A DNA stretch of 36,845 nucleotides. It comes from a bacterium (GTDB lineage: Bacteria > Acidobacteriota > Blastocatellia > HR10). Positions within the stretch are counted from its first letter, which is position 1. The number at the start of each line of letters is the position of its first letter. The notes beneath the pieces were generated by a model that saw only the letters and a list, made by a program, of their open reading frames with translations, had not been told where the DNA came from and did not search any database. The stretch is taken from the NCBI GenBank assembly GCA_041640655.1, contig JBEPZV010000025.1, forward strand, positions 1-36,845, given 5' to 3'. A program made the position numbers and the translations under genes. This document shows, in pieces, positions 6,426-32,315 of this stretch.

Positions 6426-6703
6426 CGGATCATGACCTGGAGGGGATCGTCGGCTGATGGAGGGGCAGTCTCCCGGATCCAGCCTCGTCTGAGCCGTGGC
6501 GACGGGCCTGGAAGTGTAGAGGGTTATCGGGGACTTTGATCGTCTGTGCTTGCTGACGCGATAGAGAGTACCTTTGTCTGGGTAACACTCTGTCTGGATC
6601 GAGAGGGCCTTCGGCGGGCTCGGAGTGCTGGGAACCCGCGGAGCGGGCACGATGGCGATTCCGATGATCGCTCTCCTGATCTGTGAGGAAAGGAGATCTG
6701 ACG

Positions 6704-8827: not shown

Positions 8828-9001
8828 CTCAGGGGGTTCAATGGGGAGGAAGGCGCAGGAACGGAAAGGCTGGAAGCGGGGGCGGTTTACTCCCGTTGAT
8901 TCCCGCATTGTACCGCGACATCATATAGATCGCGCGGGCGTGAGAAGAGAGGCCGCGTGAGCCCAATGAGGCTCCTCATCTTTTGGAGGGAGAGGGCGAG
9001 T

Positions 9002-10978: not shown

Positions 10979-11000
10979 GCCGACCACGCGGGAGGGGAAG

Positions 11001-12803: not shown

Positions 12804-12844
12804 GAGGTGGAACTCGTCATCTCCCGCGAGTCGGTGAGAGGAGG

Positions 12845-15634: not shown

Positions 15635-18519
15635 TCGTGAGGAGGAGAGGGCGAATGTTCGATCGTATCTCACAGGGCATCGGGCTGAGCATTGTTCTCG
15701 TGACCGTCCTCTTTCCTCCTTTCCGACATGTGGCGGGACAACTGTCTCAAGGGACGATTCGAGCGGCGCATTTCGTGCTCACGTATGACCGGCGGGGGAT
15801 CACCGGGTTGTGGAATCCCCAAGATCCGTTTCAGGCCAACCTCGTGAGCGACGACGGACGCTTGGGCGAGCCGGTCGTGACCTACCGAGTGGAAGGCGGC
15901 GATTGGTTGCCGATTTATACGGGAGCGCGACGGCTCGAGGCGGAGCCGGAGAAAGGGATGCTCACCTATACGGATTTCGATCCCGGATCTCCGCTCAAGA
16001 TGGTTCAGCAGTTCACGCTCGCAGATGAAGTCCTCGACTGGGTCATCGAGATCGAGACGACGATGAACTTCCCCGTCGTGATCGGGGACCTCGCGCTGCC
16101 AATTCCCTGGCGCTTCCCGACGGGGCCGGACGCGCCGACGATCTTCGAGCGGAGTTGGACGAAGCATCATTTCATCTCCGGTCACGGGTCGTTCCTCTAC
16201 TTCGTGCGACCGAGCGGGGACCCGCCGTATTTAGTCATCACTGTGCATCCGGGGACGAAGTTCGAGTACTACACGTCGGAGAGAAGGGGCAATTACCGGG
16301 CCTATATTCACTCGGGACTCTCCGGTGGGCGCGAGACGCGTGGGAGTTGGCGGCAGCCGCATACGGTTTTAGAGCTGCAACCGGCGGGGGCTCCGGGAAG
16401 CGCCGTGCGTTACGGCGTTCGGTTTCAGTGGGCCTGGTCCTATGCCGAGATGCGCGAGATTCTCTATCGGGAGGGGCTCTTCGATATTCGCATTGTTCCC
16501 GGCATGACGGTTCCCGAGGACCTGACGGCCCTGATCGCCCTTCGCACGAAGGCCCGCATCGAGGTGCTGGAACCGGAGTTCCCTGACAAGACGCGCATCA
16601 CGTACCTCGGCGAGCGACGCCCCGATCATCATCTCTACCGCATCGCCTTCGCGCGACTCGGCGAGAACCTGTTGACGATTCGACATGATGGTGGCCGGCA
16701 AACGTATCTGGAGTTCTTCGTAACGGAACCGCTCGAAGTCTTGATCAAGAAGCGAAGCCGGTTCATCACCCACCGGCAGCAACATCGGGACCCCTCCAAG
16801 TGGTACAACGGACTCTACTCGGTCTACGACATGAAGAACAAAGTCCTGCGAAGTCCGGAGAATACCGATGGGTTCGATTATTGGTGGGGGTATGTCCTGG
16901 CCTCCGATGATCCGGTGCTCGGCAAAGCTCCGTTTGTGGCGGCGAAGAACGTCCATTTTCCCGATCCGGAGGAGATCGCCTCGGTCGAATACTACATCGA
17001 GCATTTCGTCTGGGGCGGCTTGCAACGCACGGATCAGGAACACCCGTATCCGTACGGCATCTACGGTGTGCCCAACTGGAAAGTGAACCGCGATCCCGAT
17101 CTGCGGGCACGCGCGGGGATTCGCAATCGCCATCTCGACAAGATGCCCATCTGGCGCTCGTTCGATTATCCTCACGTCATCATGCTTTATTTCCACATGT
17201 ATGAGATCGCCGGGAAATATCCGCAGATGGTGCGCTATCTCGATGCGCGAGGGTATCTCGAGCGCGCCTATCAGACGGCGCGGGCCTACTTCCTCTATCC
17301 CTATGAGATCCTGCCTCTGGAGTACGAGACGTACAAGATCGGCTGCTATAACGAAGTGGTGATTCCGTCGCTCATCGCCGCGCTGGAGCGAGAAGGGTTC
17401 CCGGAGAAAGCGGCATGGCTGCGTGGCGAGTGGGAGAAGAAGGTCAAATACTTCATCTACGACGATCCCTATCCCTATCGCTCGGAGTATCCGTTCGATC
17501 GAACGGCGTTCGAGACGACGTACGCGGTGGCCAAGTACGGAGCCACGCACGAGATGAAGCCGGATGAGAACCTGTGGTTCGACAAGAGGCTGCAGAAGTG
17601 GTATTCGCATCCCGTCGTGCGCAAGGAAGACGCACGGGCATTCATGGAGCGACAACTGCGGGCGAATTTGGCCGTTCGGGGATGGCTGGAAGCGGCCTAT
17701 TATCTGCTCGGTGCGGATTTCACCGGTTCCTCCGATGCGGGGGCGATGAGTTATATGGCGGCCATGGGCGGCTGGGGAATTCTCGACTATGCCGTTCATT
17801 TCGCCCGAGACCCCACCGACTGGCTTCAGCTCGGATACGCCTCTTACCTCAGCTCCTGGTCGCTCATGAATACCGGGCGACCGGAGACGAACTATGGCTT
17901 CTGGTTCCCCGGCAAGGAGAACGATGGAGCTGCCGGATGGCAGTTCATGACGGCCAAGTTCGGACGTGCCTGGATTCGGAAAGATATGCCGCGCGGGGCC
18001 TGGCACTACGACGGCGAAATTGATCTCGGCTACGGCGGGGCGCTTCGCATGGCGGCGACGATTCTGACGCGCGATCCGCTCTTCGATTGGTTCGCCTATG
18101 GGGGCGCGCTCACGATCACCGCCGACGAGTTTTCCATCATCCCGCGCGATGGGTTGCGGAAGCGTTTTCACATCGTGCGGCCTGATCTTCGGATGACGAT
18201 CGAGCTGGATCGAGACGGATTCGCTGCCGAGCGACCGATCGTCGTCGCGCGAGACCTGGGGCGCATTCGGATGATGGTGGAGAATCGAACGGCGGATGCG
18301 CATGTGACGCGGCTGAGGGTCTCCGTCAGAGATCGAGCGTTGGGAGAAGCGTCCCCTGCGGGGACCGGATCGCCGCGCGCGGCCTACACAATCGTTCAGG
18401 AGGGACGGCGCCTGGGGGTCGTTCGATTCGGCGAGGAGTCCGAGATCGCGCTGACCGTCTCTGGAACGGCGACGGTCATCGAGCTGATCCGGACGCGCGA
18501 GGGAAGAGAGGGGAAGTGA
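15631..18519 (+). CDS. DUF5695 family secreted protein (putative glycoside hydrolase)
   Basis: ATGA overlap with the upstream stop (alternative ATG at 15655); signal peptide; HHFISGHGSFLYFVRPSG, FVWGGLQ, YPYGIYG, WRSFDYPH, RSEYPFDRTAFE, GYASYLSSWSL, YDGEIDLG. The family was recognised from memory. Confidence 0.72.
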   Translation: MIVRRRGRMFDRISQGIGLSIVLVTVLFPPFRHVAGQLSQGTIRAAHFVLTYDRRGITGLWNPQDPFQANLVSDDGRLGEPVVTYRVEGGDWLPIYTGARRLEAEPEKGMLTYTDFDPGSPLKMVQQFTLADEVLDWVIEIETTMNFPVVIGDLALPIPWRFPTGPDAPTIFERSWTKHHFISGHGSFLYFVRPSGDPPYLVITVHPGTKFEYYTSERRGNYRAYIHSGLSGGRETRGSWRQPHTVLELQPAGAPGSAVRYGVRFQWAWSYAEMREILYREGLFDIRIVPGMTVPEDLTALIALRTKARIEVLEPEFPDKTRITYLGERRPDHHLYRIAFARLGENLLTIRHDGGRQTYLEFFVTEPLEVLIKKRSRFITHRQQHRDPSKWYNGLYSVYDMKNKVLRSPENTDGFDYWWGYVLASDDPVLGKAPFVAAKNVHFPDPEEIASVEYYIEHFVWGGLQRTDQEHPYPYGIYGVPNWKVNRDPDLRARAGIRNRHLDKMPIWRSFDYPHVIMLYFHMYEIAGKYPQMVRYLDARGYLERAYQTARAYFLYPYEILPLEYETYKIGCYNEVVIPSLIAALEREGFPEKAAWLRGEWEKKVKYFIYDDPYPYRSEYPFDRTAFETTYAVAKYGATHEMKPDENLWFDKRLQKWYSHPVVRKEDARAFMERQLRANLAVRGWLEAAYYLLGADFTGSSDAGAMSYMAAMGGWGILDYAVHFARDPTDWLQLGYASYLSSWSLMNTGRPETNYGFWFPGKENDGAAGWQFMTAKFGRAWIRKDMPRGAWHYDGEIDLGYGGALRMAATILTRDPLFDWFAYGGALTITADEFSIIPRDGLRKRFHIVRPDLRMTIELDRDGFAAERPIVVARDLGRIRMMVENRTADAHVTRLRVSVRDRALGEASPAGTGSPRAAYTIVQEGRRLGVVRFGEESEIALTVSGTATVIELIRTREGREGK

Positions 18520-18567
18520 TCCTCGTTTTCTGGAATGCAGCGGGCGAGGCGAAAAGAGGGGGCAGGC

Positions 18568-20805
18568 ATGGTGACGCTCACACGACGAGACGTGTTGAAA
18601 GGCGTCGGCGCGATGGGTGCGGGGATGCTCTGGAGCGCGCGCGGAGGACGCGCGCAGGATGGGCTGCGCATGCGGGACCGACCGGTGGAGATCGTCATCT
18701 CCCCGGTGAGCGCGCGCACGGTGCGCATCAGTGTGATCCCGATGGACTCCGACCGCCCGATGCCGATTCCACAGGACGGTTCGCTCGTCCAGGCGGCGTG
18801 GGAGCCGCCGGTCGCGCGCCTGCGCTCGGTGACCGCGTCCCAGCGCGTGCGCGCGGGAGCGCTCACCGTGTGGGTCTCTCCCGAACCGCTGACGATTCAC
18901 GTCGAGAACGACCACGGACGCCTCGTCCAGCGGCTGCGGTTCGATTCGCGCACCGGCGCGATGGATTTTCTCCTGGGCGATGGGCCCGTTCTCGGTCTCG
19001 GACAAGGCGGGCCACAGTTCGATCGTCGCGGATCGCGCGATCTCATGCGCAGCGGTCAGGGAGGGTATCGCTTGCGCACGCACGGCGGGCGCGTGCCGAT
19101 CCCCTGGCTCATCGGGACGTCCGGGTGGGCGATGTTCGTCCATCAGCCCGATGGGATATTCGATCTGACCGGGTCGGAGGGGCGCTTCGAGCCACGCTCT
19201 CCTGAAGCTGCGCTTCCGCTCGATGTCTTCGTCGTCGGAGCGGAGGAACCGACCGAGATCATGGCCGAGTACGCGCGTCTCACGGGATGGCCCGAGATGC
19301 CGCCCTTGTGGGCCTTCGGCTATCAGCAATCGCATCGCACGCTGGCCGGTCCGGATGAAGTCCTGTCGGTCGCCCGAACCTTCCGCGAGAAGAAGCTGCC
19401 GTGCGACGTGCTCATCTACCTGGGGACGGGATTCACCCCATCGGGCTGGAACACGGCCAACGGATCGTTCTCGTTCAATCGGTCCGTCTTCCCCGATCCC
19501 GAGCGTATGATCCGCGAGCTGCACGAGATGCATTTCCGCGTCGTCCTTCACGTTGTCATCCTCTCGCGGACGTTGCGCGGGACGGTTCACGATGCATGTT
19601 CGCTGGCTCGATTCGATGAAGAGGAAGCGGGATGCTACTGGAACTTGCATCGTCGCGTGTTTGCCATGGGCGTGGATGGGTGGTGGGTGGACGAAGGCGA
19701 TCCGCTCGATCGCGCCTCGCGTCTGACGCGAAATCGCCTGTATTGGGAAGGGCCGCAGGTGGATCGCCCGAACGTGCGTCCCTATGCCCTGCATCGCAAT
19801 GGGCATGCCGGCATGCAGCGATATGCGGCGTTTCTCTGGTCGGGCGATGTCTATTCCACCTGGGAGACGCTCCGCACGCACGTTCCCGTTGCCGTCAATA
19901 CCGGGTTGAGCGGCATCCCCTATTGGGGAACGGATACCGGGGGGTTCGTTCCGACGAAAGAGCTGACGGGCGAACTCTACGTGCGATGGTTTCAATTCAG
20001 CGCGTTCTGTCCGCTCTTTCGTTCGCACGGGCGGACGTGGCATCTGCGCCTGCCGTGGGGATGGAACACGGGTCAGTTGGGGCCGGACGAGATTCGCTCC
20101 TATAGCGATGCCGCCAATCCCGATCCGAGCGAGTTGCGCAATCCGCAGGTCGAGCCGATCTGTCGTCGGTATTTGGAGTGGCGCTATCGGCTCCTGCCGT
20201 ATCTCTACAGCGTCGTGCGCGAAGGGGGCGAAACGGGACTGCCGATCATTCGCGCCTTGTGGCTGCACTATCCCCATGATGGGGCTGCCGTCAGGCGAGG
20301 GGATCAGTACCTCTGGGGACGCGATATTTTGGTCGCGCCGGTGACGGAGAAGGGAGCGACCGTGCGCCGTCTCTATTTGCCATCCGATCTGTGGTACGAC
20401 TTCTGGACGGAGGAGCGCGTGGACGGCGGACGCGAGATAGATCGCGCGGTGGATCTGGCGACGACGCCGCTCTATGTGCGGGCGGGAACGATCCTCCCTC
20501 TGGGTCCGGTGAAGCAGTACGCGGCGGAGCCGAGCGAGGAGCCGCTCACGCTCGCGGTCTATCCGGGAGCCGACGGCCGATTCGTGCTCTACGAAGACGA
20601 CGGCGTGACGTTCGATCATCGTCGAGGGGAGCAGATGAAGATCGAAGTGCGCTGGGACGACCGCCGGCGACGATTGCGTCTGCAGCTCGTCGAGGGCACG
20701 CGAATGCTTCCGCCGTCACCGCGGCGACTGCGCGTGCGCCGTGTGCCGGGCCGCGAGGTGCGCACGCTGCTCTTCACCGGCGAGCCCGTGGAGATTTCGC
20801 TGTGA
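18568..20805 (+). CDS. Tat-exported GH31 alpha-glycosidase (alpha-glucosidase/alpha-xylosidase type)
   Basis: TRRDVLK Tat motif; YARLTG..PPLWAFGYQQS, GWWVDEG (nucleophile), WSGDV, WGTDTGGF (acid/base), ELYVRWFQFSAFCPLFRSH, RYRLLPYLY, LYEDDG. Confidence 0.93.
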   Translation: MVTLTRRDVLKGVGAMGAGMLWSARGGRAQDGLRMRDRPVEIVISPVSARTVRISVIPMDSDRPMPIPQDGSLVQAAWEPPVARLRSVTASQRVRAGALTVWVSPEPLTIHVENDHGRLVQRLRFDSRTGAMDFLLGDGPVLGLGQGGPQFDRRGSRDLMRSGQGGYRLRTHGGRVPIPWLIGTSGWAMFVHQPDGIFDLTGSEGRFEPRSPEAALPLDVFVVGAEEPTEIMAEYARLTGWPEMPPLWAFGYQQSHRTLAGPDEVLSVARTFREKKLPCDVLIYLGTGFTPSGWNTANGSFSFNRSVFPDPERMIRELHEMHFRVVLHVVILSRTLRGTVHDACSLARFDEEEAGCYWNLHRRVFAMGVDGWWVDEGDPLDRASRLTRNRLYWEGPQVDRPNVRPYALHRNGHAGMQRYAAFLWSGDVYSTWETLRTHVPVAVNTGLSGIPYWGTDTGGFVPTKELTGELYVRWFQFSAFCPLFRSHGRTWHLRLPWGWNTGQLGPDEIRSYSDAANPDPSELRNPQVEPICRRYLEWRYRLLPYLYSVVREGGETGLPIIRALWLHYPHDGAAVRRGDQYLWGRDILVAPVTEKGATVRRLYLPSDLWYDFWTEERVDGGREIDRAVDLATTPLYVRAGTILPLGPVKQYAAEPSEEPLTLAVYPGADGRFVLYEDDGVTFDHRRGEQMKIEVRWDDRRRRLRLQLVEGTRMLPPSPRRLRVRRVPGREVRTLLFTGEPVEISL

Positions 20806-20916
20806 CCATGAGCCCGCGCTCGCCGCTCATCGGCCCGTCGCATCCCGCGGCTCGTGCGTCCACCGACCGTCTACCCATCGCCAAATGCCAAGAAGGGAGT
20901 CATCCTTCAATTCATC
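20787..20916 (+). repeat. Left copy of a decayed 130-bp direct repeat (intact GH31 end plus degenerate aldehyde dehydrogenase 3' end)
   Basis: Ungapped alignment to 25143-25272 at offset 4356, with 93/130 identities by hand count. The minus strand reads DELKDDSLLGIWRWVDGRWTHEPRDATGR*. Confidence 0.9.
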
Positions 20917-21040
20917 CAACGTTGCAATTGGGCCTTGCCATTCTTCATCAGAGGATCCTGTCCGTTGAGATCCGACCCGCGCGAGGTGGCAGTTTCTGTC
21001 GCGGAAGGGAGTCTTCCGTCCCGTTGCCGAAAAAAGAGGC

Positions 21041-21065
21041 TTGACAGACAGACAGACAGTATACT
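21041..21065 (+). promoter_or_regulatory. Sigma70-type promoter with (GACA)4 simple-sequence repeat; spacer only 13 bp
   Basis: TTGACA 21041-21046, spacer gacagacagacag, TATACT 21060-21065. Confidence 0.6.
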
Positions 21066-21108
21066 TAGGACCATGACGAGAAAAGCATAGTCCGAAGGAG
21101 GTGTCGAA

Positions 21109-21399
21109 ATGAAGCGCTGGGTATGGTCGTTGCCGGTTCTTAGACAGATTTGGAAGCGCATGGGGACAAGGGGACTCCGGATCATCGAAGTGACCCTGTT
21201 TATGACCTTGATCCTAATGCTCCTTTCGGCCGGAGGCCCGTCGAGGGCGACAGCCCAAGACGAGATTTTGTTATGGGCGCGCTGTGCGGATGCCGGGTGT
21301 CCAGCCTGTCCTTTAGGATGCGAGGGTTACGTGAATCCCTGCGCGGTCATTTGTAATGATGGGCGATGGATTCGGTGTGGCAGCTTGGGATGCCCATGA
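21109..21399 (+). CDS. Secreted cysteine-rich micro-protein / peptide precursor (8 Cys in a 47-aa mature region)
   Basis: AAGGAGGT RBS; basic N-region, hydrophobic core and A-T-A|Q cleavage site; mature QDEILLWARCADAGCPACPLGCEGYVNPCAVICNDGRWIRCGSLGCP. Confidence 0.8.
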   Translation: MKRWVWSLPVLRQIWKRMGTRGLRIIEVTLFMTLILMLLSAGGPSRATAQDEILLWARCADAGCPACPLGCEGYVNPCAVICNDGRWIRCGSLGCP

Positions 21400-21578
21400 C
21401 GAACGCCGCCCGTAAAACGTGCAGTTACGGCAGGTCGGTTGGTCTTGTGACGTGTCCGTCTCCTCGTCCGAAAGTTGAGAGGTACGTGGATCATGCGCGG
21501 GTCGATTCAAAGAACACTGCCCCGCCTAATATGGCATAAATCGACTTCGGGCGCCTGCGGGGAAAACATAATAGGGAA

Positions 21579-23360
21579 ATGGACATGACGGGATCAGTTC
21601 GGAAGGGCCTCGGTCTTTGGGTGATGGCGGTGAGCTTCTTTCCTCTCGCTCTTGGGCAGGAGGGCGACAGGGACGCTCAAAAGGAAAGGGCTTGGCATCT
21701 GGTCGAGAGCCTCAGTCACGAAGTCAAACAATGGAACGACTTCCGTGATCGCGTGGTGGTCTCTTTGAAGCTGGCCGATCTTCTATGGGAACATGACGAA
21801 CAACTCGCCCGAGACACCTATATTGCGGCCTTTCGGGCCATTCCGCCGGTCAGTAAGGAGACGCCTCGTTTGGAGCGAGAATTTCGCCGGCAACTCCGGC
21901 TTCGTGTTTTATCGGAGCTGGCCCGTCGAGATCCGAAACTAGCGGAGCGGCTTACCAGGGAACTGACCGAGGTGGTGCGAGATCATGATCCTTCTTCTCA
22001 GCACCTTTCTGAGGAGGAACGCAGAGAACGGGCCGAGTCTCTTATCCAAGAAGCGGGTTTGGTATCGCTGACCGATCTCAAGGCAGCGGCGTCGCTGGTG
22101 GAAGAGGCCGTGCGCTATCAGGTCGTGCCGAGTTTCGCCAATTTTCTCGACGTCTTTGCATCAAGAGAGCCGGAGATAGCCAGGAAACTGTACGGCTTGG
22201 CCTTCGCGCGGGCTCGGGCCCAAAGGTTTTCGGGGTCAACCTTGGAGACGATGTTGATGGCGGTTGTCCGAACCAGGAGCTCAGATCCTCCTCTTTACAG
22301 CCCAGAGCAGCTCAAAGAGCTGTTGTGGATTCTCGAAAGTCGACTCAGTCAGGGAATCCGCTTTTCAGCGACAGAGCCGTTGCCGGTCGCCCTCGAATGG
22401 GTTCGCGTGCCGACGATCGTTTCATTGCTCAAGGAGTTGATCCCACTCTATGAGCAGTATCTTCCGGAGCTGTTGCCGAGTATTCAGGCACATCTCCTCT
22501 CGCAACTTCGTTCGCTGAATGAGCTTCAGCAAATAGCTTTAGGCTATAGCGGATCCGCCGGTACGGACGTAACGGTTGAAGAGCTTGTTTCTAAGGCCAA
22601 CAGGGCGGCAAGCCAACGCGCGCGGGACGTGTTGTATTGGTTGGCAGCCGAGCGTGCCAGGAGGAAGGGGGATCTGATACAAGCCTTTTCCCTGGCCGAG
22701 AAGATTCAAGATGAGCGCCATCGCGAGGCCATGATCACGGCCTTGCGCATCGCAAGGGCGCAAGCAGCAGTGGGTGCTGGAGACACCGCTCAGGCCCTGG
22801 ACGTTCTTCGGAAGATGCCGAAGGAGACGTGCGGCAAGATCACCCCTGTCTACGCTGAGATTGCTAGAGCTTTCGTGAAGCAAGAGAACCCCGAGCAGGC
22901 TCGTGCCGTCATTGCCGAGGCTGAGCGATGTTGGTCCGGTCGCGAACTCACCGCCGATCCCTGGGAGGCTGCTGGATCGCTCACACTGCTTGTGGACGTC
23001 CTTGTCCCCTTGGACGAGGACTCGGCCTTTGTGCTCACGGCTTCGATCATCCCCTGGCTCAACCGATCGACCGAAAAGAAGGACGACACCGCTGCTCACG
23101 ATGGGTTCACTTGGCGAAGACTGCCTATGATCGGCTATCCGACGAGCACCAACGGTGGGATGAGGATGGTGAGCTTTGAGGAGATTTTGGCCCGACTGGC
23201 CCAAAAAGATTTCGAGCGAACTCTGCTGATCGTCACCGGTTTGAAATCGGCAGCCCTGCGCGCTCTCGCCCAGCTCGCCGTTTGTGACGGAATACTCCGT
23301 CATGCGGAGGAGAAGCGAACGTCTTCGTTTGAGCGTGGTCCGGTGTATGGGCGGAAGTGA
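21579..23360 (+). CDS. Secreted alpha-helical repeat (TPR/HEAT-like) hypothetical protein
   Basis: 593-aa ORF; signal peptide ending ALG|Q; amphipathic helical repeats (LADLLWEHDEQLAR, GDLIQAFSLAEKIQD, LAQKDFERTL). Confidence 0.78.
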   Translation: MDMTGSVRKGLGLWVMAVSFFPLALGQEGDRDAQKERAWHLVESLSHEVKQWNDFRDRVVVSLKLADLLWEHDEQLARDTYIAAFRAIPPVSKETPRLEREFRRQLRLRVLSELARRDPKLAERLTRELTEVVRDHDPSSQHLSEEERRERAESLIQEAGLVSLTDLKAAASLVEEAVRYQVVPSFANFLDVFASREPEIARKLYGLAFARARAQRFSGSTLETMLMAVVRTRSSDPPLYSPEQLKELLWILESRLSQGIRFSATEPLPVALEWVRVPTIVSLLKELIPLYEQYLPELLPSIQAHLLSQLRSLNELQQIALGYSGSAGTDVTVEELVSKANRAASQRARDVLYWLAAERARRKGDLIQAFSLAEKIQDERHREAMITALRIARAQAAVGAGDTAQALDVLRKMPKETCGKITPVYAEIARAFVKQENPEQARAVIAEAERCWSGRELTADPWEAAGSLTLLVDVLVPLDEDSAFVLTASIIPWLNRSTEKKDDTAAHDGFTWRRLPMIGYPTSTNGGMRMVSFEEILARLAQKDFERTLLIVTGLKSAALRALAQLAVCDGILRHAEEKRTSSFERGPVYGRK

Positions 23361-23946
23361 CGTTTCTGTCCGAAGACGCTTGATATATATCGTTCTGCTT
23401 CTCGCTGCGAATTACCTCTTGGCGGCGACCCTTTTCTTTCCTCCGAAGACGATCCAATCCTCCTTCCCATCCATCCCTCGGCGCGCGAGACTGAGCGATA
23501 TCCCCGGATTGGAACAACTTAGAGAAATGATCACACCAGCGGCGCGACAATCGCGTCCATCTGTCATCGTTCTTCTGGAAAATTACTCAACGACGTGTCC
23601 AGGGGCCGCTTTGGTGGAGGCGCTCAAAACGGTGCATGAGCAAAGGGGGAATGGAGTTCACCTCCTCAGTATCCTCGTGGACGGGGACCTTGAAGTTGCC
23701 GACCTGGAGAACTTCAAGCGAGTGCTTGAATTCCAGCTGCCAGGGGTTCCGGTTCAAGTCTCCTGGGCCGACCAACGCCTCCGCACCTGGTGGACTCGTT
23801 CGATGCCGCGATCGGGGAGATGGCAGAGTCGCGCTGTGATGATGGTCGTCGATGCGCATGGTCGTGTTCGTGAGATCGTTGATGAAGCGAAATTGAATGA
23901 GGTTGATCGGGTGCGTGCGGCCTTTGCGTTTGAGGGAAAGCCGTGA
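23347..23946 (+). CDS. Membrane-anchored thioredoxin-fold (TlpA/AhpC-like) protein with degenerate STTC active site
   Basis: ATG 23347 overlaps the upstream gene end; TM helix IYIVLLLAANYLLAATLFF; PSVIVLLENYSTTCP, helix, VHLLSILVD, then VMMVVDAHGRV follow the TlpA pattern. Confidence 0.6.
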   Translation: MGGSDVSVRRRLIYIVLLLAANYLLAATLFFPPKTIQSSFPSIPRRARLSDIPGLEQLREMITPAARQSRPSVIVLLENYSTTCPGAALVEALKTVHEQRGNGVHLLSILVDGDLEVADLENFKRVLEFQLPGVPVQVSWADQRLRTWWTRSMPRSGRWQSRAVMMVVDAHGRVREIVDEAKLNEVDRVRAAFAFEGKP

Positions 23947-25094
23947 TACGGCTCGCCGTCACGCTAGCATCATTATGGTTGGTGATCTCATGTCAAGGTT
24001 CGCAGGAGCTCGATGGTAAGCTGAAACCGCGACCCCAGACGGAGGCGAGGGCCCCCCAGTCCGTCATTGATCAGAACGTCCTGAAGAGGGATCTCCTGGC
24101 CCGGCTTCCCGCTGACGACAACTGGATGAAGCTCGAACTGATGAAGGTGTTCCCCTTAGACGGACAGAGGGGCACGATTCCCATCATAACTCCTATCATG
24201 ATTTCTTCGGGCTCGGAAGGAACCGTGTATATAACGGATGCCGCCGGGAACCAGGTGATTGAGCTCTCGCCGGATCTTGAGGTCCTCAGAAAGATCCCCT
24301 CCCAACCTTTTCGGCCGCTTAACAGACCCTCATGGGCAACGCCGGTCGATGGAACCTTGTACGTATTAGATCTGACAGGATTCAACGTCTTCTCGGCCGC
24401 AGGAGAGTGGATCGGGAAATTTAAGGCCTTCGTTGCCGCTCATTCGATAACTCTCTGCCGCGATGGCGGGATGTACGTGAATCCCATATTTCTTTACCCT
24501 CCGCGCGGGCGCGCGTCTCCTCTCATCATGCAATTCGACCTCTCGGGTAGGCTTCTCCGTTCTTTTGGCCGAGCAGAAAGTAACGGTATCGGAGCTATCG
24601 ATAATCGAGCCCTCCTCGCATGCGATCGGCATCGGCTTGTAGCGGCGTTCACGTATCGAAGCAAGATTCACGTCTATGCGCTTGATGGCCGAAAAATAAG
24701 GGACATAGATGTCCGGTATCGGCCGATACGAGAGCTCGAACGGCATAATATCGAGCAACAGTCCACCCTACAGTCTTCCGGGATCGTACATCGGGTCAAT
24801 CTCGTCGCTGGAGTTTCAATCTTCAAGGAAAGAATCTTTGTTCTTCTTGACCTGCCGCGGATCGAGATTCTGGAGTTTGATCTTCAAGGGCGCCAGGTAA
24901 AGCATTATTATGCAGGCGAAGGCGCAGGGTTTGTCGGTCCTGGGGGAAACGGTCTCGTTGTGAGGCGACAGGGTCGGACGTTAATCTTTTATGTCCTGTC
25001 AGGGCGCGGGACTTTGTTCAAACTCTCATCACCTGTAAGATCGTCTCCCCGCGTTCCCCTCCGAGGGCGAATCGGGCGAGGCAGGCCGATTTGA
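23943..25094 (+). CDS. Six-bladed beta-propeller / NHL-repeat lipoprotein
   Basis: GTGA overlap with the upstream stop; lipobox LVIS|C; blades GTVYITDAAGNQVIEL, FNVFSAAGEWIGKF, IMQFDLSGRLLRSFG, IHVYALDGRKIRDI, ILEFDLQGRQVKHY. Confidence 0.8.
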   Translation: MIRLAVTLASLWLVISCQGSQELDGKLKPRPQTEARAPQSVIDQNVLKRDLLARLPADDNWMKLELMKVFPLDGQRGTIPIITPIMISSGSEGTVYITDAAGNQVIELSPDLEVLRKIPSQPFRPLNRPSWATPVDGTLYVLDLTGFNVFSAAGEWIGKFKAFVAAHSITLCRDGGMYVNPIFLYPPRGRASPLIMQFDLSGRLLRSFGRAESNGIGAIDNRALLACDRHRLVAAFTYRSKIHVYALDGRKIRDIDVRYRPIRELERHNIEQQSTLQSSGIVHRVNLVAGVSIFKERIFVLLDLPRIEILEFDLQGRQVKHYYAGEGAGFVGPGGNGLVVRRQGRTLIFYVLSGRGTLFKLSSPVRSSPRVPLRGRIGRGRPI

Positions 25095-25142
25095 ATGAAA
25101 GCGCGGCCGTTCTGGCTCAGGCTGGGCGGGACGCGAGGGATG

Positions 25143-25272
25143 CGTGGACGCCTCGCTCTGACGACGAGCGCGCAATCCTCGTTCATTTTCCCGTCGCGTT
25201 GAGCGGCTCGCGCGTCCACCGACCATCCACCAGCCGCCAGATGCCCAGCGGATTTTCGTCCTTCAGTTCGTC
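25143..25272 (+). repeat. Right copy of the 130-bp direct repeat (degenerate GH31 end plus intact aldehyde dehydrogenase 3' end)
   Basis: gtggacgcctcgctctga (VDASL*) mirrors the GH31 end gtggagatttcgctgtga (VEISL*). Both stop codons align at offset 4356. Confidence 0.9.
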
Positions 25273-26799
25273 AGGCAGCGCCGCATTGGGGAAGTTCTGA
25301 TAGCAGATGGGGCGGGTGAAGCGATAAATCGCGCGCGTGCCCACGGAGGTGGATCGGCCATCCGACGTCGCCGGGAAGGGGCCACCGTGCACCATCGCGT
25401 GGCAGACTTCGACGCCTGTTGGAAAACCGTTGAAGATCAGCCGGCCGACCTTCGTCTCCAAGATGGCGATCAGATCGCGGAAAGCGAGCAGATCGTCCTC
25501 CGTGCCGTGGAGAGAGGCCGTCAGTTGACCCTCCATCGCGCGAGCGATGGCCAGAAGGTGCTCTCGGCGCGAGTAGGTGACCAAGAGCGTCGCCGGTCCG
25601 AAGATCTCTTGGCCCAGATCGGGATGCGCGAGGTAGGATTGAGCGTCCGTTTGGAAGAGGGCGGCGTAAGCGGAGCATCCCAGTGATGTCGCCTCCAAAG
25701 CGGAGGGGGATCGAGGAGCGAGAAGCGTGACGGCCGTATGATGACCGCGATCCTCAAGAGCGCGGCGGTAGGTCGCGCCGATGCCCGCAGTCAAGAGCGT
25801 GAAGGGAGGCGTTTGCGCGATCAGCTCGGCGAGCTTTTCGATGAAGGGGGCGGAAGCCGCCCCTTCTTCGATCAGGACGACTCCCGGTTTCGTGCAGAAC
25901 TGGCCGGCGCCGACCGTGACCGATGCGTACAGGCCCATCGCGATCTGTTCTCCGCGTTCGCGAAGAGCGCCTGGGAGGATGAAGATTGGATTCACACTGC
26001 TCATCTCCGCGTAGAAGGGGATCGGATCCGGTCGCGAGGCGGCCTCCGCCATGAGGGCGAGGCCTGCGGCGCGAGATCCGGTGAAGGCGACGGCTCTCAC
26101 TTCCGGATGGATGACGAGCGCGCGACCGATGTCTGTTCCGGCGTCGAAGAGCAGAGAGAAGACGCCCTCGGGCATACTGCAGGTGTGCGCGGCTTCGATG
26201 ATCGCCAGGCCAACCATCTCCGATGTCCCCGGATGAGCCGGATGAGCTTTGACGAGCACCGGATTTCCAGCGGCGAGCGCCGAAGCCGTATCTCCCCCCG
26301 CGACGGAGAACGCCAGAGGGAAGTTACTCGCACCGAAGACGGCGACGGGACCCAGTGGGCGGAGCAGCGAGCGAACATCCGGTTTGGGGACGGGCTGACG
26401 GGTGGGATCGGCGCGATCAATTCGCGCGTCTACCCATGACCCTTCTTCGACGAGATCCGCGAACAGGCGAAGCTGGAAACACGTTCGCGCTCTCTCCGCC
26501 TGAAGACGCGGGATCGGAAGGGCTGTCTCCTGAGCAACTCGCTCCAGGAGGGCGTCGCCGAGCGCTTCGATATTGGCGGCGATCTGGCGCAGGAAGGCCG
26601 CTCGCTGGTGACCGGAGGTCTGGGCGTATGTAGCGAAGGCGCGCGCCGCCAATTGTACCGCCTCTTCGAGTTCAGCACGGGATGCCGAATAATAGGCGGG
26701 CTCTAGGGGCTCGCCCGTTGTGGGATTCACCGCGAAGAAGGATGTCCCTGTGGGAGCGCCTCGTCGGAAACCGATGATCGAGACACCGGTGAGCTTCAT
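25183..26799 (-). CDS. Alpha-ketoglutaric semialdehyde (2,5-dioxopentanoate) dehydrogenase
   Basis: GGAGG RBS at ATG 26799; PVAVFGASNFPLAFSVAGGDTASALAAG, KAHPAHPGTSE, FTGS, EMSSVNP, GQFCTKPG, GFPTGVEVCHAMVHGGPFPA. Confidence 0.93.
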   Translation of the reverse strand: MKLTGVSIIGFRRGAPTGTSFFAVNPTTGEPLEPAYYSASRAELEEAVQLAARAFATYAQTSGHQRAAFLRQIAANIEALGDALLERVAQETALPIPRLQAERARTCFQLRLFADLVEEGSWVDARIDRADPTRQPVPKPDVRSLLRPLGPVAVFGASNFPLAFSVAGGDTASALAAGNPVLVKAHPAHPGTSEMVGLAIIEAAHTCSMPEGVFSLLFDAGTDIGRALVIHPEVRAVAFTGSRAAGLALMAEAASRPDPIPFYAEMSSVNPIFILPGALRERGEQIAMGLYASVTVGAGQFCTKPGVVLIEEGAASAPFIEKLAELIAQTPPFTLLTAGIGATYRRALEDRGHHTAVTLLAPRSPSALEATSLGCSAYAALFQTDAQSYLAHPDLGQEIFGPATLLVTYSRREHLLAIARAMEGQLTASLHGTEDDLLAFRDLIAILETKVGRLIFNGFPTGVEVCHAMVHGGPFPATSDGRSTSVGTRAIYRFTRPICYQNFPNAALPDELKDENPLGIWRLVDGRWTREPLNATGK

Positions 26800-26827
26800 C
26801 CGTATACCTCCTTTGAAGTGGGCCGTT

Positions 26828-27736
26828 TCAGCCTTCACCCACGTGAGGGCGAGTCTGGAGCGCAGCGCGAATTGTGGCTTGCGCGCGCTCCAGCTCCTCG
26901 CCGACCAGCTCCAAACGTGGGGGCCGCACGCGCGCGTTCCCCATGCCCACCTCCTGTTGCACCAGTTTGATCAACTGCACGAACTTCGGCACCGTATCCA
27001 TCCGCAGCAGGGGAAGGAACCAGCGGTACAGTTCGAAGGCTTCTTCCCAGCGGCCTCGCATGGCCAGATCGAAAAGAGCGACCGACTCTCTGGGGAGCGC
27101 ATTGGCCAGACCGGCGATCCAGCCGACGGCTCCCATGGCAATGCCTTCCAGGATCAGGTCATCCACCCCCACGAACACAGCGAGCCGATCTCCGACACGG
27201 GCTCGGATCGCCGTCACGCGCCGAACATCAGCGCTGGATTCCTTGACGGCATGGAGATTCTCGTGCTCGGCGGCCAACTCCTGAATATGCTCGGGGAGAA
27301 AATCCGTTCCATAAGCGATGGGGTTGTTATAGAGCATGCAGGAGAGGTGGGTCGCACGGAACACGGCCGAGACATGCGCCTTCATCTCTCGCCAATCTCC
27401 GCGGTAGACATAGGGGGGCAGGACCATGAGGCCCTGGCATCCGATGTCCGCTGCGCGCCGGGCTAATTCGACCGCTTCCCTCGTGCTCAACGCGGAGATT
27501 CCGGCGACGACGGGCGCTCGACCTTCCAGAGCGCGCACACACGTTCGCCAGAGGGCGAGCTTCTCCTCGAAGCTGAGCGTCGCTCCCTCGCCCAGGGAGC
27601 CGCACACGACAACGCCCGCGCATCCGTTCTCAACCAGCCAGACGCAGTGCCCAGCCACGAAGGTGTGGTCAATCTGCAAATGTTCATCAAAGCAGGTCGT
27701 GATCGCCGGCATGACGCCTCTCCAGATCATCGCCAT
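26828..27736 (-). CDS. lhpC: Delta1-pyrroline-4-hydroxy-2-carboxylate deaminase (DapA/DHDPS family)
   Basis: True start MAMIWRGVMPAITT (AAGGAG RBS); GSLGEG, MLYNNPIAYGTD, AVKESSADVRR, GVDD, GWIAGLANA; sits in the hydroxyproline operon. Confidence 0.88.
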   Translation of the reverse strand: MAMIWRGVMPAITTCFDEHLQIDHTFVAGHCVWLVENGCAGVVVCGSLGEGATLSFEEKLALWRTCVRALEGRAPVVAGISALSTREAVELARRAADIGCQGLMVLPPYVYRGDWREMKAHVSAVFRATHLSCMLYNNPIAYGTDFLPEHIQELAAEHENLHAVKESSADVRRVTAIRARVGDRLAVFVGVDDLILEGIAMGAVGWIAGLANALPRESVALFDLAMRGRWEEAFELYRWFLPLLRMDTVPKFVQLIKLVQQEVGMGNARVRPPRLELVGEELERAQATIRAALQTRPHVGEG

Positions 27737-29010
27737 ACGCTCTCTCCTTGTTCTGGGAATGCGATCAAACTCTCCACACGGGCGGGAAAGATCGGAGGTC
27801 GGATGGACTCCATGGTCCAACCGAAGAGAAATTCGACGGCTGGGCCACAGATGCGACCTTGGCAGGGACCCATCCCGCATCGCGTGTGGAGCTTCGCTTC
27901 TCTCCACGATCGGTATGCCTCCAAGCGTCCTCGTGGGACATCCTCGCACCGGCAGACGATCGTCTGCGCATCCGGAAGCTTCTTCAATTCCGGACGAAGG
28001 GCGAACGTTCGGTTGAGTCTGGCGGCGAAACGCCGCCATCGGTCGCGTTGAGGAAAGAGCGCGCGCGCCGCCTCCGGGCGACCGGCCGCTGCATATCCGG
28101 CGATCTGCCCTTCCACGAGGGCCAGGTCCACGCCTCCAATCCCGGTGGGCTCGCCCGCGCAGAAGATGTTCGCGCGCGAGGTCTCTTGAAACTCGTTCAC
28201 CCGCACACAGCCCTCGCGCACTTCGCACCCCAACAGGAGCGCTAGTTCCACATTCGGGACGAGGTGGAACCCGCATGCCAGATAGTCGCAGGGGATCTCT
28301 CGCGTTCTGGATCCGCACTGCAACGTGACGCTCTGCAGGCGCCCGTCGCCGTTCGCCGAGAGAGGCCAGCAGCTTGAGCGATATGGCGCATCGAAGAGCC
28401 GTCCGCGCAAGATGAGCGCCTGCCATGCCTTCGTGGGGAATCTCCAGAGCCCCCGTCCTAGCGAGAGAAGGCGGGAGAGCGGCGCTTGTTCGGCGATCAT
28501 GAGGACACGGGCGCCGTGCGCGCGCAGGTAGGCTGCGACCGCGAGAAGGAGCGGGCCGGTTCCTGCGACGACGACTCTCTTGCCGCGAATGGGAAAGCCC
28601 ATCTTCACCAGTGCCTGAAGTCCTCCCGCGCCCATGACGTTCGGGAGCGTCCACCCGGGGAAGGGGAGGAATCGCTCCCGCGCGCCCGTCGCGAGAATCA
28701 GCGTCTTGTAGCGGAATTCATAAGCGACCTGTTGGTCCTCGCCCAGAAGCGTCCTCTCTGCGACTTCTGCGATGACGCGAATTCCTGTCAGGATCGTGAG
28801 GCGCGCGCGACGCACCTTGTCGAACCACGACGCCGCTTCTGAGGAGCGCGGAGTCGTCCACTCCCCGCGCCAGATCTGACCGCCGGGCATCGGGTTCTCA
28901 TCCACGAGGATCACGTGACGTCCGCTGCGCGCGGCTGTGTACCCAGCCGCGAGGCCAGCCGGACCGGCACCGATGACAAGCACCTCTGTGGCGAATCGTT
29001 GCAGTCTCAT
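27727..29010 (-). CDS. D-hydroxyproline dehydrogenase alpha subunit (FAD/NAD(P)-binding, C-terminal BFD-like 2Fe-2S; HcnB/OoxA-like)
   Basis: VIGAGPAG, LILATGARERFLPFPGWTLPNVM, GTGPLLL, VCRCEDV...TRCGMGPCQGRIC. Confidence 0.85.
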   Translation of the reverse strand: MRLQRFATEVLVIGAGPAGLAAGYTAARSGRHVILVDENPMPGGQIWRGEWTTPRSSEAASWFDKVRRARLTILTGIRVIAEVAERTLLGEDQQVAYEFRYKTLILATGARERFLPFPGWTLPNVMGAGGLQALVKMGFPIRGKRVVVAGTGPLLLAVAAYLRAHGARVLMIAEQAPLSRLLSLGRGLWRFPTKAWQALILRGRLFDAPYRSSCWPLSANGDGRLQSVTLQCGSRTREIPCDYLACGFHLVPNVELALLLGCEVREGCVRVNEFQETSRANIFCAGEPTGIGGVDLALVEGQIAGYAAAGRPEAARALFPQRDRWRRFAARLNRTFALRPELKKLPDAQTIVCRCEDVPRGRLEAYRSWREAKLHTRCGMGPCQGRICGPAVEFLFGWTMESIRPPIFPARVESLIAFPEQGESVWR

Positions 29011-29252
29011 TCGGTTCGCACGTCCATGCCATCCTCACAGAGCACCTGACAGCTCCGACAATGCGGCCGATTGTTGATCATGACGCGGCATTCGAAGCAC
29101 ACGCCAATGCCGCACAGGGGGCCGCGCGGTTCCCCGCTCACCGACCGCCGCACCGCCAGGATGCCGTTCGCGAGCAACGCCACCAGAACCGTCGTGCCCG
29201 CTGGAACCTCGACGCGCGTGTGATTGATCGTCAGGGTGACGACCTCAAGCAT
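29007..29252 (-). CDS. D-hydroxyproline dehydrogenase gamma subunit (2Fe-2S ferredoxin-like)
   Basis: RRSVSGEPRGPLCGIGVCFECRVMIN...RSCQ; overlaps both neighbouring genes. Confidence 0.88.
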   Translation of the reverse strand: MLEVVTLTINHTRVEVPAGTTVLVALLANGILAVRRSVSGEPRGPLCGIGVCFECRVMINNRPHCRSCQVLCEDGMDVRTE

Positions 29253-30370
29253 GTCAGGCTCTCCATCCGAGAGGGGAGATAAGGCTCTGGGGGGATCGCC
29301 GGAGGCCGCTTCAGGAGATGGGCGACGAGCAACTGAGCCGTCCCCAGGGACGTCGTGATACCCAGTCCTTCATGGCCGGTGGCGAGGTACAGATACTCGT
29401 GCCCGGGGAGTGGACCAATCAGCGGCAGGTTGTCCGGCGTCGCCGCTCGGAACCCCGTCCACGTGCGGATGATCGAAAGCTCGGCGAGCTGAGGCAGATA
29501 GGCGCACGCGCGCGCGAGCATGCGCGCCAGAACTTCGTGACTCACATCGGAGGATTCGACATCATACTGGCGAGATGAACCGATCAGCAGCTGCCCCGTC
29601 GGTCGGGGCTGAATGTTGAAGGCGATGGAGCTGGCCTCATGGGCGTGCGCGCTCTTGAGGTATCCCACTTCGACGAGCTGATGTCGCACAAAACCCGGAT
29701 ACCGATCGGTGATAGCGAGGTGCCCTTTTCGCTTCTTGATCGCCAGTCCCGGCATCAGTTCCGACGCCCACGTGCCTGTCGCGTTGATGATCGCGCCAGC
29801 CGGGAGGAATGATCCATCGCGCAAGGTCACGCCCTGTTTGTCGAGCCTCACCACAGATTGCCCGATGAAGATCGCCGCTCCGCGATCTCGAGCTCGCTCC
29901 AAGAGGAAGCGCGCGGCACATGGCGGATAAACGACGCTATCGCCAGAGACGAGCAGTCCTCCTCGAAGGCCTTCGCGGAGATTCGGTTCGGCTTCCGCGA
30001 GAGCCCGTTCGTCCAAAAACTCAACGGAGACATGGCGCTCCCGGTAGAACTGCTCCTTGCGCCGCAAATGGCCCAGCTCTTCCTCATCGGTCGCGATCCA
30101 GATCGTCCCATACCGTCGGAATTCGCATTCCGGGGGGAGGTCATCGGCGAGTTGATCCCAGAGACATTGCGAATACCGCGTCAGCGCGAACTGCGCGTCC
30201 GAATCATCCATGACCACAATGTGTCCCATCCCGGCTGCCGTCGCCCCTCCCCCGACACACGACGACTCGACGACGGCTACTCGCATCCCTTCCTTCGCGC
30301 ATTCGGCTGCGCACGCGGCTCCCACGATGCCGGCGCCCACGATGATGACATCATACGCGCGCGGACTCAT
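29231..30370 (-). CDS. lhpB: D-hydroxyproline dehydrogenase beta subunit (DAO-family flavoprotein)
   Basis: True start MSPRAYDVIIVGAGIVG at 30370 (ATGA overlap with the epimerase stop); GATAAGMGH, RKGHLAITDRY, WTGFRAATPD, GHEGLGITT. Confidence 0.87.
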   Translation of the reverse strand: MSPRAYDVIIVGAGIVGAACAAECAKEGMRVAVVESSCVGGGATAAGMGHIVVMDDSDAQFALTRYSQCLWDQLADDLPPECEFRRYGTIWIATDEEELGHLRRKEQFYRERHVSVEFLDERALAEAEPNLREGLRGGLLVSGDSVVYPPCAARFLLERARDRGAAIFIGQSVVRLDKQGVTLRDGSFLPAGAIINATGTWASELMPGLAIKKRKGHLAITDRYPGFVRHQLVEVGYLKSAHAHEASSIAFNIQPRPTGQLLIGSSRQYDVESSDVSHEVLARMLARACAYLPQLAELSIIRTWTGFRAATPDNLPLIGPLPGHEYLYLATGHEGLGITTSLGTAQLLVAHLLKRPPAIPPEPYLPSRMESLTCLRSSP

Positions 30371-31320: not shown

Positions 31321-31332
31321 AACCCGTCCTCG

Positions 31333-32259: not shown

Positions 32260-32288
32260 CGGCATCACCTCCTCGTCTCTCAAAATGG

Positions 32289-32315
32289 GCATATCCTATA
32301 TAATATAGGATATGC
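32289..32315. promoter_or_regulatory. Perfect 27-bp palindromic operator
   Basis: gcatatcctatat-a-atataggatatgc (13-bp arms) lies between two divergent regulator genes. Confidence 0.85.

Follow-up and report, generated by a model that had tools for sequence, protein, structure and literature searches.

Among systems already described, the gene clusters of the bacteroidetocins, class IIf bacteriocins of the Bacteroidales, appear to be the nearest studied case to the locus reported here. In these clusters a small exported multi-cysteine peptide lies beside a dedicated thiol-oxidoreductase-type gene, the cassettes are strain-specific and the dedicated thiol oxidoreductase is reported to be needed for full activity (PMC6671954). 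Another parallel, an extracytoplasmic membrane-tethered thioredoxin-fold module beside an NHL propeller, is offered by SOQ1 of plants and NHLRC2 of humans; the two sources state that the thioredoxin active-site region faces the cup of the propeller in the NHLRC2 structure (PMC6107167) and that the lumenal domains of SOQ1 function even as separate proteins (preprint 10.1101/2024.11.01.621559). The locus itself is a cassette of four genes, designated p1 to p4, at positions 21109-25094 on the forward strand of a 36,845-nucleotide stretch of acidobacterial DNA (contig JBEPZV010000025.1 of assembly GCA_041640655.1), and this whole stretch is referred to below as the window.

Two further kinds of system resemble parts of the cassette. 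Neighbourhoods of the Bacteroidales combine NVEALA peptides (PF14055), DUF5128 "6-bladed beta-propeller" proteins and TlpA-like proteins. Phase variation through simple sequence repeats (SSRs) is known mainly from host-adapted pathogens, and in hif a TA tract lies between the -35 and -10 elements. Related cases include the tetranucleotide tract by the promoter of nadA (PMC2791445), sabA (PMC4081817) and the SSRs of Haemophilus influenzae (PMC2651432). A literature search of main texts found no paper on the cassette, on a single-cysteine protein like p3, on the insertion or on the family of GACA-repeat promoters described below, and it returned no paper on NVEALA and no relevant one on phase variation in Chloracidobacterium.

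The cassette was inserted horizontally, and roughly a dozen loci in its genus form the family to which it belongs; it fails the defining features of every named family considered. The folds of its parts, and SSR promoters as a kind, were known already; new are the solenoid protein p2 as a constant partner, the single-cysteine p3, an insertion scar with empty sites in relatives, and the GACA-repeat promoter family. A first-pass annotation, made from the sequence of the window, had proposed an apparently undescribed extracytoplasmic four-gene system, in support of which no Pfam, NCBIfam or PADLOC family was reached at cut-off for any of p1 to p4. That annotation makes no mention of the scar left by the insertion, of the cassettes around p2 paralogs or of the promoter common to them. 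The comparison covered 41 related genomes, and those named here are G000, the genome of the window, and the relatives G001, G002, G004, G005, G006, G032 and G037.

Four forward-strand open reading frames (ORFs) make up the cassette in the ORF listing of the window. The first, p1 (21109-21399), encodes a 96-residue precursor with a predicted signal peptide of about 49 residues and a mature part of 47 residues that holds 8 cysteines and begins with Gln; its Shine-Dalgarno sequence, GAAGGAGG, lies at 21094-21101, 7 nt 5' of the ATG. A spacer of 179 nt (21400-21578), with a small hairpin at 21410-21430, separates it from p2 (21579-23360), which encodes a 593-residue predicted secreted alpha-solenoid of the TPR-like kind. 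The third gene, p3 (23302-23946), specifies a putative membrane-anchored thioredoxin-fold protein in which CPGA replaces CxxC. Its start overlaps the 3' end of p2 and is uncertain, the candidates being GTG 23284 (220 residues), ATG 23302 (214 residues) and ATG 23347 (199 residues), and public gene calls place it at 23302. The last gene, p4 (23943-25094), has a GTG start, overlaps p3 by 4 nt (GTGA) with a well-matching ribosome-binding site (RBS), GAGGGAAAG, just upstream, and encodes a 383-residue lipoprotein with probable NHL-type beta-propeller blades.

These places, with the last three genes overlapping, the RBS of p1, the gap of 179 nt and the two arms of the hairpin (21410-21415 and 21425-21430), agree with the first-pass annotation, as do the export or anchor signals that it assigned to all four products. 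Visual inspection and a crude filter for hydrophobicity were used to assign these signals. The p1 precursor has a long basic n-region, an h-region and a predicted cut at ATA/QDE (after Ala-Thr-Ala); p2 shows a signal ending in FFPLALG/QEG, p3 a single N-terminal hydrophobic helix as membrane anchor, and p4 a lipoprotein site at LVIS/C. The same four genes occur in the same order in one sister species, G002, with protein identities of 93% (p1), 97% (p2), 95% (p3) and 96% (p4) and a DNA identity of 96-98%, and all 8 cysteines of p1 are retained there. Because all four are kept without frame breaks in G002 at 93-97% identity, the ORFs are more than chance; the frames are intact in both species and also in contigs of four public runs. 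The block was detected in public hot-spring and sediment metagenome contigs from 20 runs of 17 studies with at least 56% of the sampled words, and these habitats, together with the taxa of the Atlas neighbours (mostly Acidobacteriota), are consistent with a hot-spring acidobacterium as host.

The hairpin and gap after p1 had been taken as a layout typical of a precursor made in excess, and this part of the first-pass annotation was not borne out. The spacer (184 nt folded) was no more stable than its shuffled versions (z +0.86, with 161 of 200 shuffles at least as stable), no terminator-like site was found 3' of p1, and an Rfam search of the spacer gave no match at E<=1. The spacer is 93% identical to that of G002 with 7 gap columns and is therefore not coding. 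Its first part, window positions 21400-21500, has a single base difference from G002 and is better conserved than the coding parts, which may be chance; no structure or family was detected in these 100 nt.

The cassette is an insertion, as seen from an empty site in relatives, flanking repeats and deviant base composition. The inserted block of 4.2 kb (20917-25142, forward strand) contains the whole cassette and lies between two direct-repeat copies of about 130 nt that are 72% identical to one another. The left copy (20787-20916) is a relic of the 3' end of an aldehyde dehydrogenase gene and overlaps the last 19 nt of a GH31 gene, and the right copy (25143-25272) supplies the functional 3' end of the aldehyde dehydrogenase gene itself (25183-26838, reverse strand). 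In the congeners G004 and G006 the GH31 and aldehyde dehydrogenase genes are adjacent, which is the empty site, and in G004 one stretch aligns to both repeat copies. The guanine-plus-cytosine (GC) content of the block is 0.563, compared with a genome mean of 0.637, which places it in the bottom 1.7% among 1363 genome segments of 4.2 kb. The block holds only the four ORFs, none of them with a Pfam family, and no integrase or transposase was found in it. The earlier statement that no cytoplasmic enzyme for ribosomally synthesised and post-translationally modified peptides (RiPPs), no peptidase and no ATP-binding cassette (ABC) exporter is present was confirmed within 20917-25142, and the flanks are unrelated sugar and hydroxyproline catabolic genes.

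Upstream of p1, at 21041-21065 on the forward strand, lies a promoter-like module that consists of TTGACA, GACA units, a G and TATACT, with the two hexamers 13 nt apart. The repeat tract (21043-21058) comprises 4 GACA units, counting the unit inside TTGACA. The same module, TTGACA(GACA)nG-TATAMT, occurs at 13 loci in G000 with n from 2 to 8 and at 41 sites in 8 genomes, and the consensus over the 41 sites reads AAAGGGGCTT, (GACA)n, G, TATAMT and a GGCCGCCAAG-like stretch. Besides G000, all 7 of the family genomes searched have the motif, whereas it is missing from each of 33 other genomes of the class. In G000, 10 tracts of at least three GACA units were observed where 0.37 were expected, and all 10 lie within the module. 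Each of the 13 modules in G000 is followed 25-50 nt downstream by a strong RBS, at least 11 of the 13 precede an ORF with a signal-peptide-like start, and 8 of the first ORFs encode at least 4 cysteines. The twelve other sites in G000 are C2:60587, C19:18657, C32:12839, C32:7846, C36:361, C51:11420, C54:5585, C59:3025, C59:99, C66:6095, C72:3034 and C91:5460. Several contigs end at or near the module, which therefore also breaks assemblies.

The number of units differs between close relatives, by comparison of assembled contigs across samples and species. At the cassette locus four units stand in the window and also in a contig of run X3 that spans the tract. Run X4 has five (in a single contig, with a depth of 2956 of 2967), and G002 has six or more, a lower bound since its contig ends inside the tract. 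At other orthologous loci n is 2 (G000, G001 and G004) versus 6 (G002), 4 versus 3, and 2 versus 3. Five units give TTGACA, 17 nt and TATACT, and 17 nt is the textbook spacing of -35 and -10 elements. The module is a tandem repeat inside a predicted core promoter that shows whole-unit length polymorphism between close relatives, which is one mark of an SSR-switched promoter, and the repeat-length differences between populations suggest on/off switching. Like the SSR contingency promoters, it places a short tandem repeat in or beside the core promoter at many exported-protein loci, with unit numbers that vary between close strains. Unlike them, it belongs to a free-living hot-spring acidobacterium and not to a host-adapted pathogen, its GACA repeat begins within the -35 hexamer, and most of its tracts have 2-4 units.

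The protein shared most widely among the cassettes is p2. Its AlphaFold2 model is all-helical, with 27 helices and a predicted local distance difference test score (pLDDT) of 77, in agreement with the helical fold suggested at first pass, and a structure search with it in the PDB gave generic TPR or solenoid matches only, with template-modelling (TM) scores below 0.3. The TPR families of Pfam stayed under the cut-off of 27 (ARM_TT21 at 22.7 bits, TPR_4 at 14.9 bits). A profile built from 26 relatives and searched among 1.84 billion cluster representatives matched 12,447 of them at E<=0.001 and 2,015 at E<=1e-30, and the neighbours of p2 in the Atlas are hypothetical proteins, mostly of Acidobacteriota, with no Pfam family. 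Matches were found in 28 of the 41 related genomes, with five paralogs in G000. Long relatives of p2 carry no informative extra domain, DUF3887 being present in 2 of 9. Judged from its model, p2 is probably a secreted TPR-like alpha-solenoid of a large, unnamed and mainly acidobacterial family.

Relatives of p2 do co-occur with small ORFs that encode a signal peptide and many cysteines, an association that the first-pass annotation had proposed to look for. To pass the crude filter used, a small ORF had to begin like a signal peptide, encode 4 or more cysteines and lie on the same strand, no more than 1 kb upstream. By this filter 4 of the 6 p2-family genes in G000 have such an ORF, against a baseline of 24 of 3324 long ORFs, and the remaining two follow larger secreted cysteine-rich proteins (596 residues with 30 cysteines; 276 residues with 11 cysteines). 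Among 21 p2-family genes in 20 loci of the other genomes, about 6 have a cysteine-rich small ORF and 2 more follow a larger cysteine-rich secreted protein, so that by gene order the link appears strong within this lineage without being universal. True TlpA-like genes come after p2 paralogs on contig C59 of G000 and in G005, G002 and G001. The three of these proteins that were scanned (C59, L025 of G005 and L030 of G001) all match AhpC-TSA above cut-off, and the gene of G002 (L027) was assigned through 89% identity to the C59 protein. Contig C51 carries another single-cysteine thioredoxin-like variant, with CPFS, and the C59-type locus continues with a second promoter, another cysteine-rich protein and a 343-residue protein with a weak alignment to p4. 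A different family of the class is represented by G037, where a 96-residue precursor with 7 cysteines comes first, then a p2 homologue and then an NHL propeller. Some sister cassettes consist of a peptide and p2 only, or of p2 and a propeller without a thioredoxin-like gene.

The peptides of different cassettes show no sequence kinship and no common cysteine pattern, except that p1 is weakly like a small ORF 5' of the p2 paralog on contig C91 (E 0.003 in a single comparison). Mature p1 has closely spaced cysteine pairs (CxxC, CxxxC and Cx4C) and no Pfam hit. Public sets contain it as a called gene, in a single cluster at 95% identity found on 19 contigs; they yielded no further relative. The same C-terminal tail, G-P-G-P-I-L-P, ends two otherwise unrelated cysteine-rich precursors encoded 5' of p2 homologues in different families of the class, L012 (G000:C51, 3092-3412, reverse strand) and L031 (G037, 6417-6707, reverse strand), and might act as a tag for sorting or recognition. 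At G000:C45:9003-9479 (forward strand), about 1.2 kb 5' of the 30-cysteine secreted protein and its p2 paralog, there is a DsbA-like match that contains one in-frame TGA and could be a selenoprotein or a broken gene.

Set beside the bacteroidetocin clusters, the cassette has the same pairing of a small exported multi-cysteine peptide with a thiol-oxidoreductase-type gene. According to PMC6671954, the bacteroidetocins carry a double-glycine leader of 15 residues, and their clusters encode a five-helix membrane protein and an ABC transporter that includes a peptidase domain. In the cassette, p1 carries a signal peptide of the Sec type, neither a transporter nor a peptidase is encoded, and p3 is not a CxxC enzyme. 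The host also has a general disulfide system, which Bacteroides is described there as lacking (PMC6671954). Genes for oxidative folding in G000 comprise a VKOR-DsbA fusion and two DsbA-like genes; a search of G000 for DsbB found none.

By its model p3 is probably a degenerate single-cysteine protein of the thioredoxin fold. The AlphaFold2 model (pLDDT 72) was built on an alignment of 7 rows, and its top Foldseek hits in the PDB were ResA, aq_2194, DipZ, DsbF and CcmG (E of about 1e-4, probability 1.00, target TM of about 0.5), with Sco2 also among the hits. Its language-model features lie near SCO1, AhpC-TSA and Redoxin clusters in the Atlas (0.92-0.93), which is a lead only. The exported part has a single cysteine. 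In the alignment, the CxxC position reads C-P-G-A in p3, C-R-A-C in the paralogs and C-T-G-C in a 30%-identical relative from G032; the canonical cis-proline is absent, with a gap where the TlpA-like paralogs have T-A-I-P-Q, and the model is of low confidence in this loop (residues 156-159). Of the "monothiol redoxin" proposed at first pass, the thioredoxin fold and the single cysteine at the CxxC position held up, and redoxin activity became doubtful, with the second cysteine and the cis-proline missing. Sequence searches reached little: against the PDB nothing meaningful appeared (one match at E 0.49), BLASTP against the paralogous thioredoxin-like proteins was not significant, and a search of 5.8 billion proteins returned p3 itself and one ortholog of about 94-95% identity. 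Strong matches occur in 2 of the 41 related genomes (G000 and G002), and 5 further ones are weak (E 0.001 to 0.1). The sole distant relative found is L044 (G032:C1, 934-1899, forward strand), a membrane-anchored protein of 321 residues with no Pfam family and two tandem p3-like domains, the second with CTGC.

Members of the TlpA, ResA, CcmG and DsbE group share with p3 the N-terminal membrane anchor and a thioredoxin fold outside the cytoplasm, give the best structural matches of its model and, as true members with AhpC-TSA above cut-off, hold the same position in sister cassettes. They are set apart from p3 by its CPGA with one cysteine, the missing cis-proline and the lack of a Pfam hit.

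The propeller fold foreseen for p4 was borne out by profile searches. A profile of p4 and two close homologues matched, among PDB sequences, Pizza6 at 8e-17 (residues 81-149, in up to 6 stretches) and PknD at 7.6e-4, and a wider profile matched TRIM3 at 1.6e-14 and PknD at 1e-13. In p4 itself no Pfam family was reached at E<=1, hence PF01436 was not reached either; 2 of 7 aligned relatives match NHL, the best of them, the G037 homologue, with 31.9 bits where the cut-off is 20, and p4 aligns to this NHL-positive homologue by BLASTP. On this evidence p4 is most probably an NHL-type beta-propeller lipoprotein. Three relatives were found, the farthest 48% identical, and among species representatives there is one locus, of the G002 type. 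The 48%-identical protein (P0002) has a p3-like N-terminal membrane anchor fused directly to the propeller and no thioredoxin-fold domain. Anchor, thioredoxin domain and propeller seem to have been gained, lost or split among the relatives.

As in SOQ1 and NHLRC2, p3 and p4 set a membrane-tethered extracytoplasmic thioredoxin-fold module beside an NHL propeller, and they differ in several respects. They are two genes with a 4-nt overlap and not one chain; p3 has T-T-C-P-G-A and not the CC(I/V)NC given in PMC6107167, and lacks the canonical cis-proline; no C-terminal beta domain with a redox cysteine pair was identified in the cassette; and the cassette adds a secreted cysteine-rich peptide and a TPR-like protein. 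No sequence match of the cassette proteins to SOQ1 or NHLRC2 was obtained. As in the NVEALA and DUF5128 neighbourhoods, where the propeller is six-bladed, genes for a small exported peptide, a propeller lipoprotein and a protein of the thioredoxin-like kind adjoin one another in the cassette, whereas PF14055 in p1 and PF17170 in p4 were not reached. The parallel, drawn loosely at first pass, is thin: DUF5128 comes near its cut-off in the distant p4 homologue of G037 only (22.4 bits against 22.9), and no NVEALA-like peptide was found.

From these observations we infer, with a probability of about 0.4, a stochastically switched, inserted operon that exports a disulfide-rich peptide together with dedicated envelope binders, the peptide acting as a released antagonistic or signalling factor. 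Transcription would start at the sigma-70-like promoter, whose -35 and -10 elements are separated by (GACA)n, and slippage that gains or loses a unit would shift the spacer by 4 nt (13 to 17), so that the operon is probably switched or tuned and would be transcribed at a permissive tract length. The p1 precursor would be well translated, exported by Sec and cut after Ala-Thr-Ala to a 47-residue peptide with an N-terminal Gln, which the VKOR-DsbA of the host would oxidise to form up to four disulfides. The products of p2, p3 and p4 would be translationally coupled envelope proteins, p2 binding the peptide in the periplasm as chaperone, carrier or self-protection, and p3 and p4 acting as a pair, as the thioredoxin-like and NHL parts of SOQ1 and NHLRC2 do. 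Because it has one cysteine and no cis-proline, p3 would be more a holder or mixed-disulfide partner than a full oxidoreductase. The peptide would then be released as an antagonist or signal, its partners serving maturation and immunity; that it is bacteriocin-like is a guess. Competition or signalling fits the strain-specific presence, the foreign composition, the many diverged copies, the hypervariable peptides with conserved partners and the stochastic-looking control. A wider version, possible and as yet doubtful, is a "phasome" of a dozen or more contingency loci, each switched by (GACA)n slippage, that would export different disulfide-rich peptides with TPR-like binders, often with a thioredoxin-fold/NHL pair, as a stochastic and combinatorial arsenal of toxins or signals on strain-mobile cassettes.

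A number of observations weigh against the preferred reading of a switched, exported antagonist or signal. No RNA runs are among the public runs listed as holding the locus. Mature p1 is net negative, with 5 Asp/Glu and 3 Arg, unlike most cationic antimicrobial peptides. Codons that differ between G000 and G002 number, nonsynonymous to synonymous, 7:4 in p1, 19:19 in p2, 10:5 in p3 and 16:15 in p4, which fits only moderate constraint, although with two genomes so closely related these counts carry little information. In other genomes, 12 or 13 of the 21 genes of the p2 family have no adjoining cysteine-rich ORF. The fold model of p3 is support and not proof, as 4 of its 7 alignment rows were TlpA-like proteins chosen by the analyst, and hhalign of p3 with the TlpA-like proteins of the sister cassettes gave a probability of 1.3%. 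At the promoter, a sigma-70 scan did not call the module with its 13-nt spacing, five units occur in none of the 41 assembled sites, and 29 of the 41 have 2 or 3 units (spacers of 5 or 9 nt); such tracts slip rarely and are unable to act with TTGACA as a -35 element, and the repeat may be a protein-binding site. The GACA tract could accordingly be read as the operator of a transcription factor that co-regulates a secretome regulon, with length differences as neutral drift, and the conservation of the module on both sides of the repeat (AAAGGGGCTT before it, the GGCCGCCAAG-like stretch after the -10), as for a protein-binding promoter, speaks for this. We regard it as unlikely, since n differs between samples and between orthologous loci otherwise 96-98% identical, every change is of whole 4-nt units, and one natural population has a spacing of exactly 17 nt.

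The other explanations leave the promoter aside and concern what the proteins do. The cysteine pairs of the peptide might bind iron, copper or zinc in the periplasm, which p2, p3 and p4 would pass on or store, the cassettes then being accessory modules of metal acquisition or detoxification. Two sister loci with the same promoter (C59 and C54) adjoin iron-uptake genes, the C59 surroundings being kept in G005, the peptide is acidic, and p3 has SCO1/SenC clusters among its Atlas neighbours and Sco2 among the structural hits of its model. Metal handling is nevertheless quite improbable: p3 has one exported cysteine and neither the CxxxC nor the His with which SCO1-type proteins bind copper, the cassette of the window stands between unrelated catabolic genes, exported cysteines are expected to be oxidised in a host with VKOR-DsbA, and the cassette peptides share no cysteine pattern. 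About equally improbable is a role in envelope redox repair, with p3 and p4 as a split analogue of SOQ1/NHLRC2 that acts on an envelope client, p2 as scaffold and the small cysteine-rich protein as redox partner or regulated client instead of a released product. A membrane-anchored thioredoxin-like protein followed by an NHL propeller is the lumenal architecture of SOQ1 in the two sources (PMC6107167; 10.1101/2024.11.01.621559), p3 and p4 appear translationally coupled, and the 48%-identical relative of p4 joins a p3-like anchor to the propeller; against this stand the missing CC(I/V)NC and cis-proline that define the thioredoxin-like domain of NHLRC2 and SOQ1, the lack of an identified C-terminal domain with a cysteine pair, and sister cassettes without any thioredoxin-like gene. 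It is very improbable that the cassette is an accessory island that has fallen silent or is decaying and serves no function today. The cassette is limited to two species, carries no mobility gene, has a sub-optimal promoter spacing in the window and shows nonsynonymous changes about as numerous as synonymous ones, whereas none of its four frames is broken in either species or in the contigs of the four public runs, the 8 cysteines are kept, and the block recurs in the 20 runs from 17 studies.

Three of the loci that carry the module have noteworthy gene content. L016 (G000:C2, 4601-7110, reverse strand) comprises genes for a 97-residue secreted protein, a 101-residue hydrophobic protein with 10 cysteines, a 271-residue weakly LolA-like protein and an ABC ATPase. 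L018 (G000:C54, 3-5596) encodes an 8-cysteine and a 296-residue secreted protein, followed by Peripla_BP_2, FecCD, an ABC ATPase and a TonB-dependent receptor. L011 (G000:C59, 122-5933) is the cassette that comes directly after FeoB and a DtxR-like/FeoA gene, a neighbourhood kept in G005. Around the insertion in the window, the left flank (8957-20805, forward strand) holds genes for DUF885, a BNR/sortilin protein, DUF5695 and GH31. The right flank (25183-32292, reverse strand) is a cluster of the hydroxyproline catabolic type, with aldehyde dehydrogenase, a dihydrodipicolinate synthase-like gene, flavin adenine dinucleotide (FAD) oxidoreductases, a proline-racemase-like gene and an AraC regulator.

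The cassette links a very large unnamed acidobacterial family, that of p2, to small cysteine-rich secreted peptides and to a pairing of thioredoxin-fold and NHL proteins whose human (NHLRC2) and plant (SOQ1) counterparts are only now becoming understood. A promoter whose repeat extends from within the -35 hexamer is a directly testable design, and the genus supplies natural on/off and presence/absence variants of the module. If the repeat does switch these operons, SSR-driven phase variation also shapes the exported peptide repertoire of a member of a hot-spring community.

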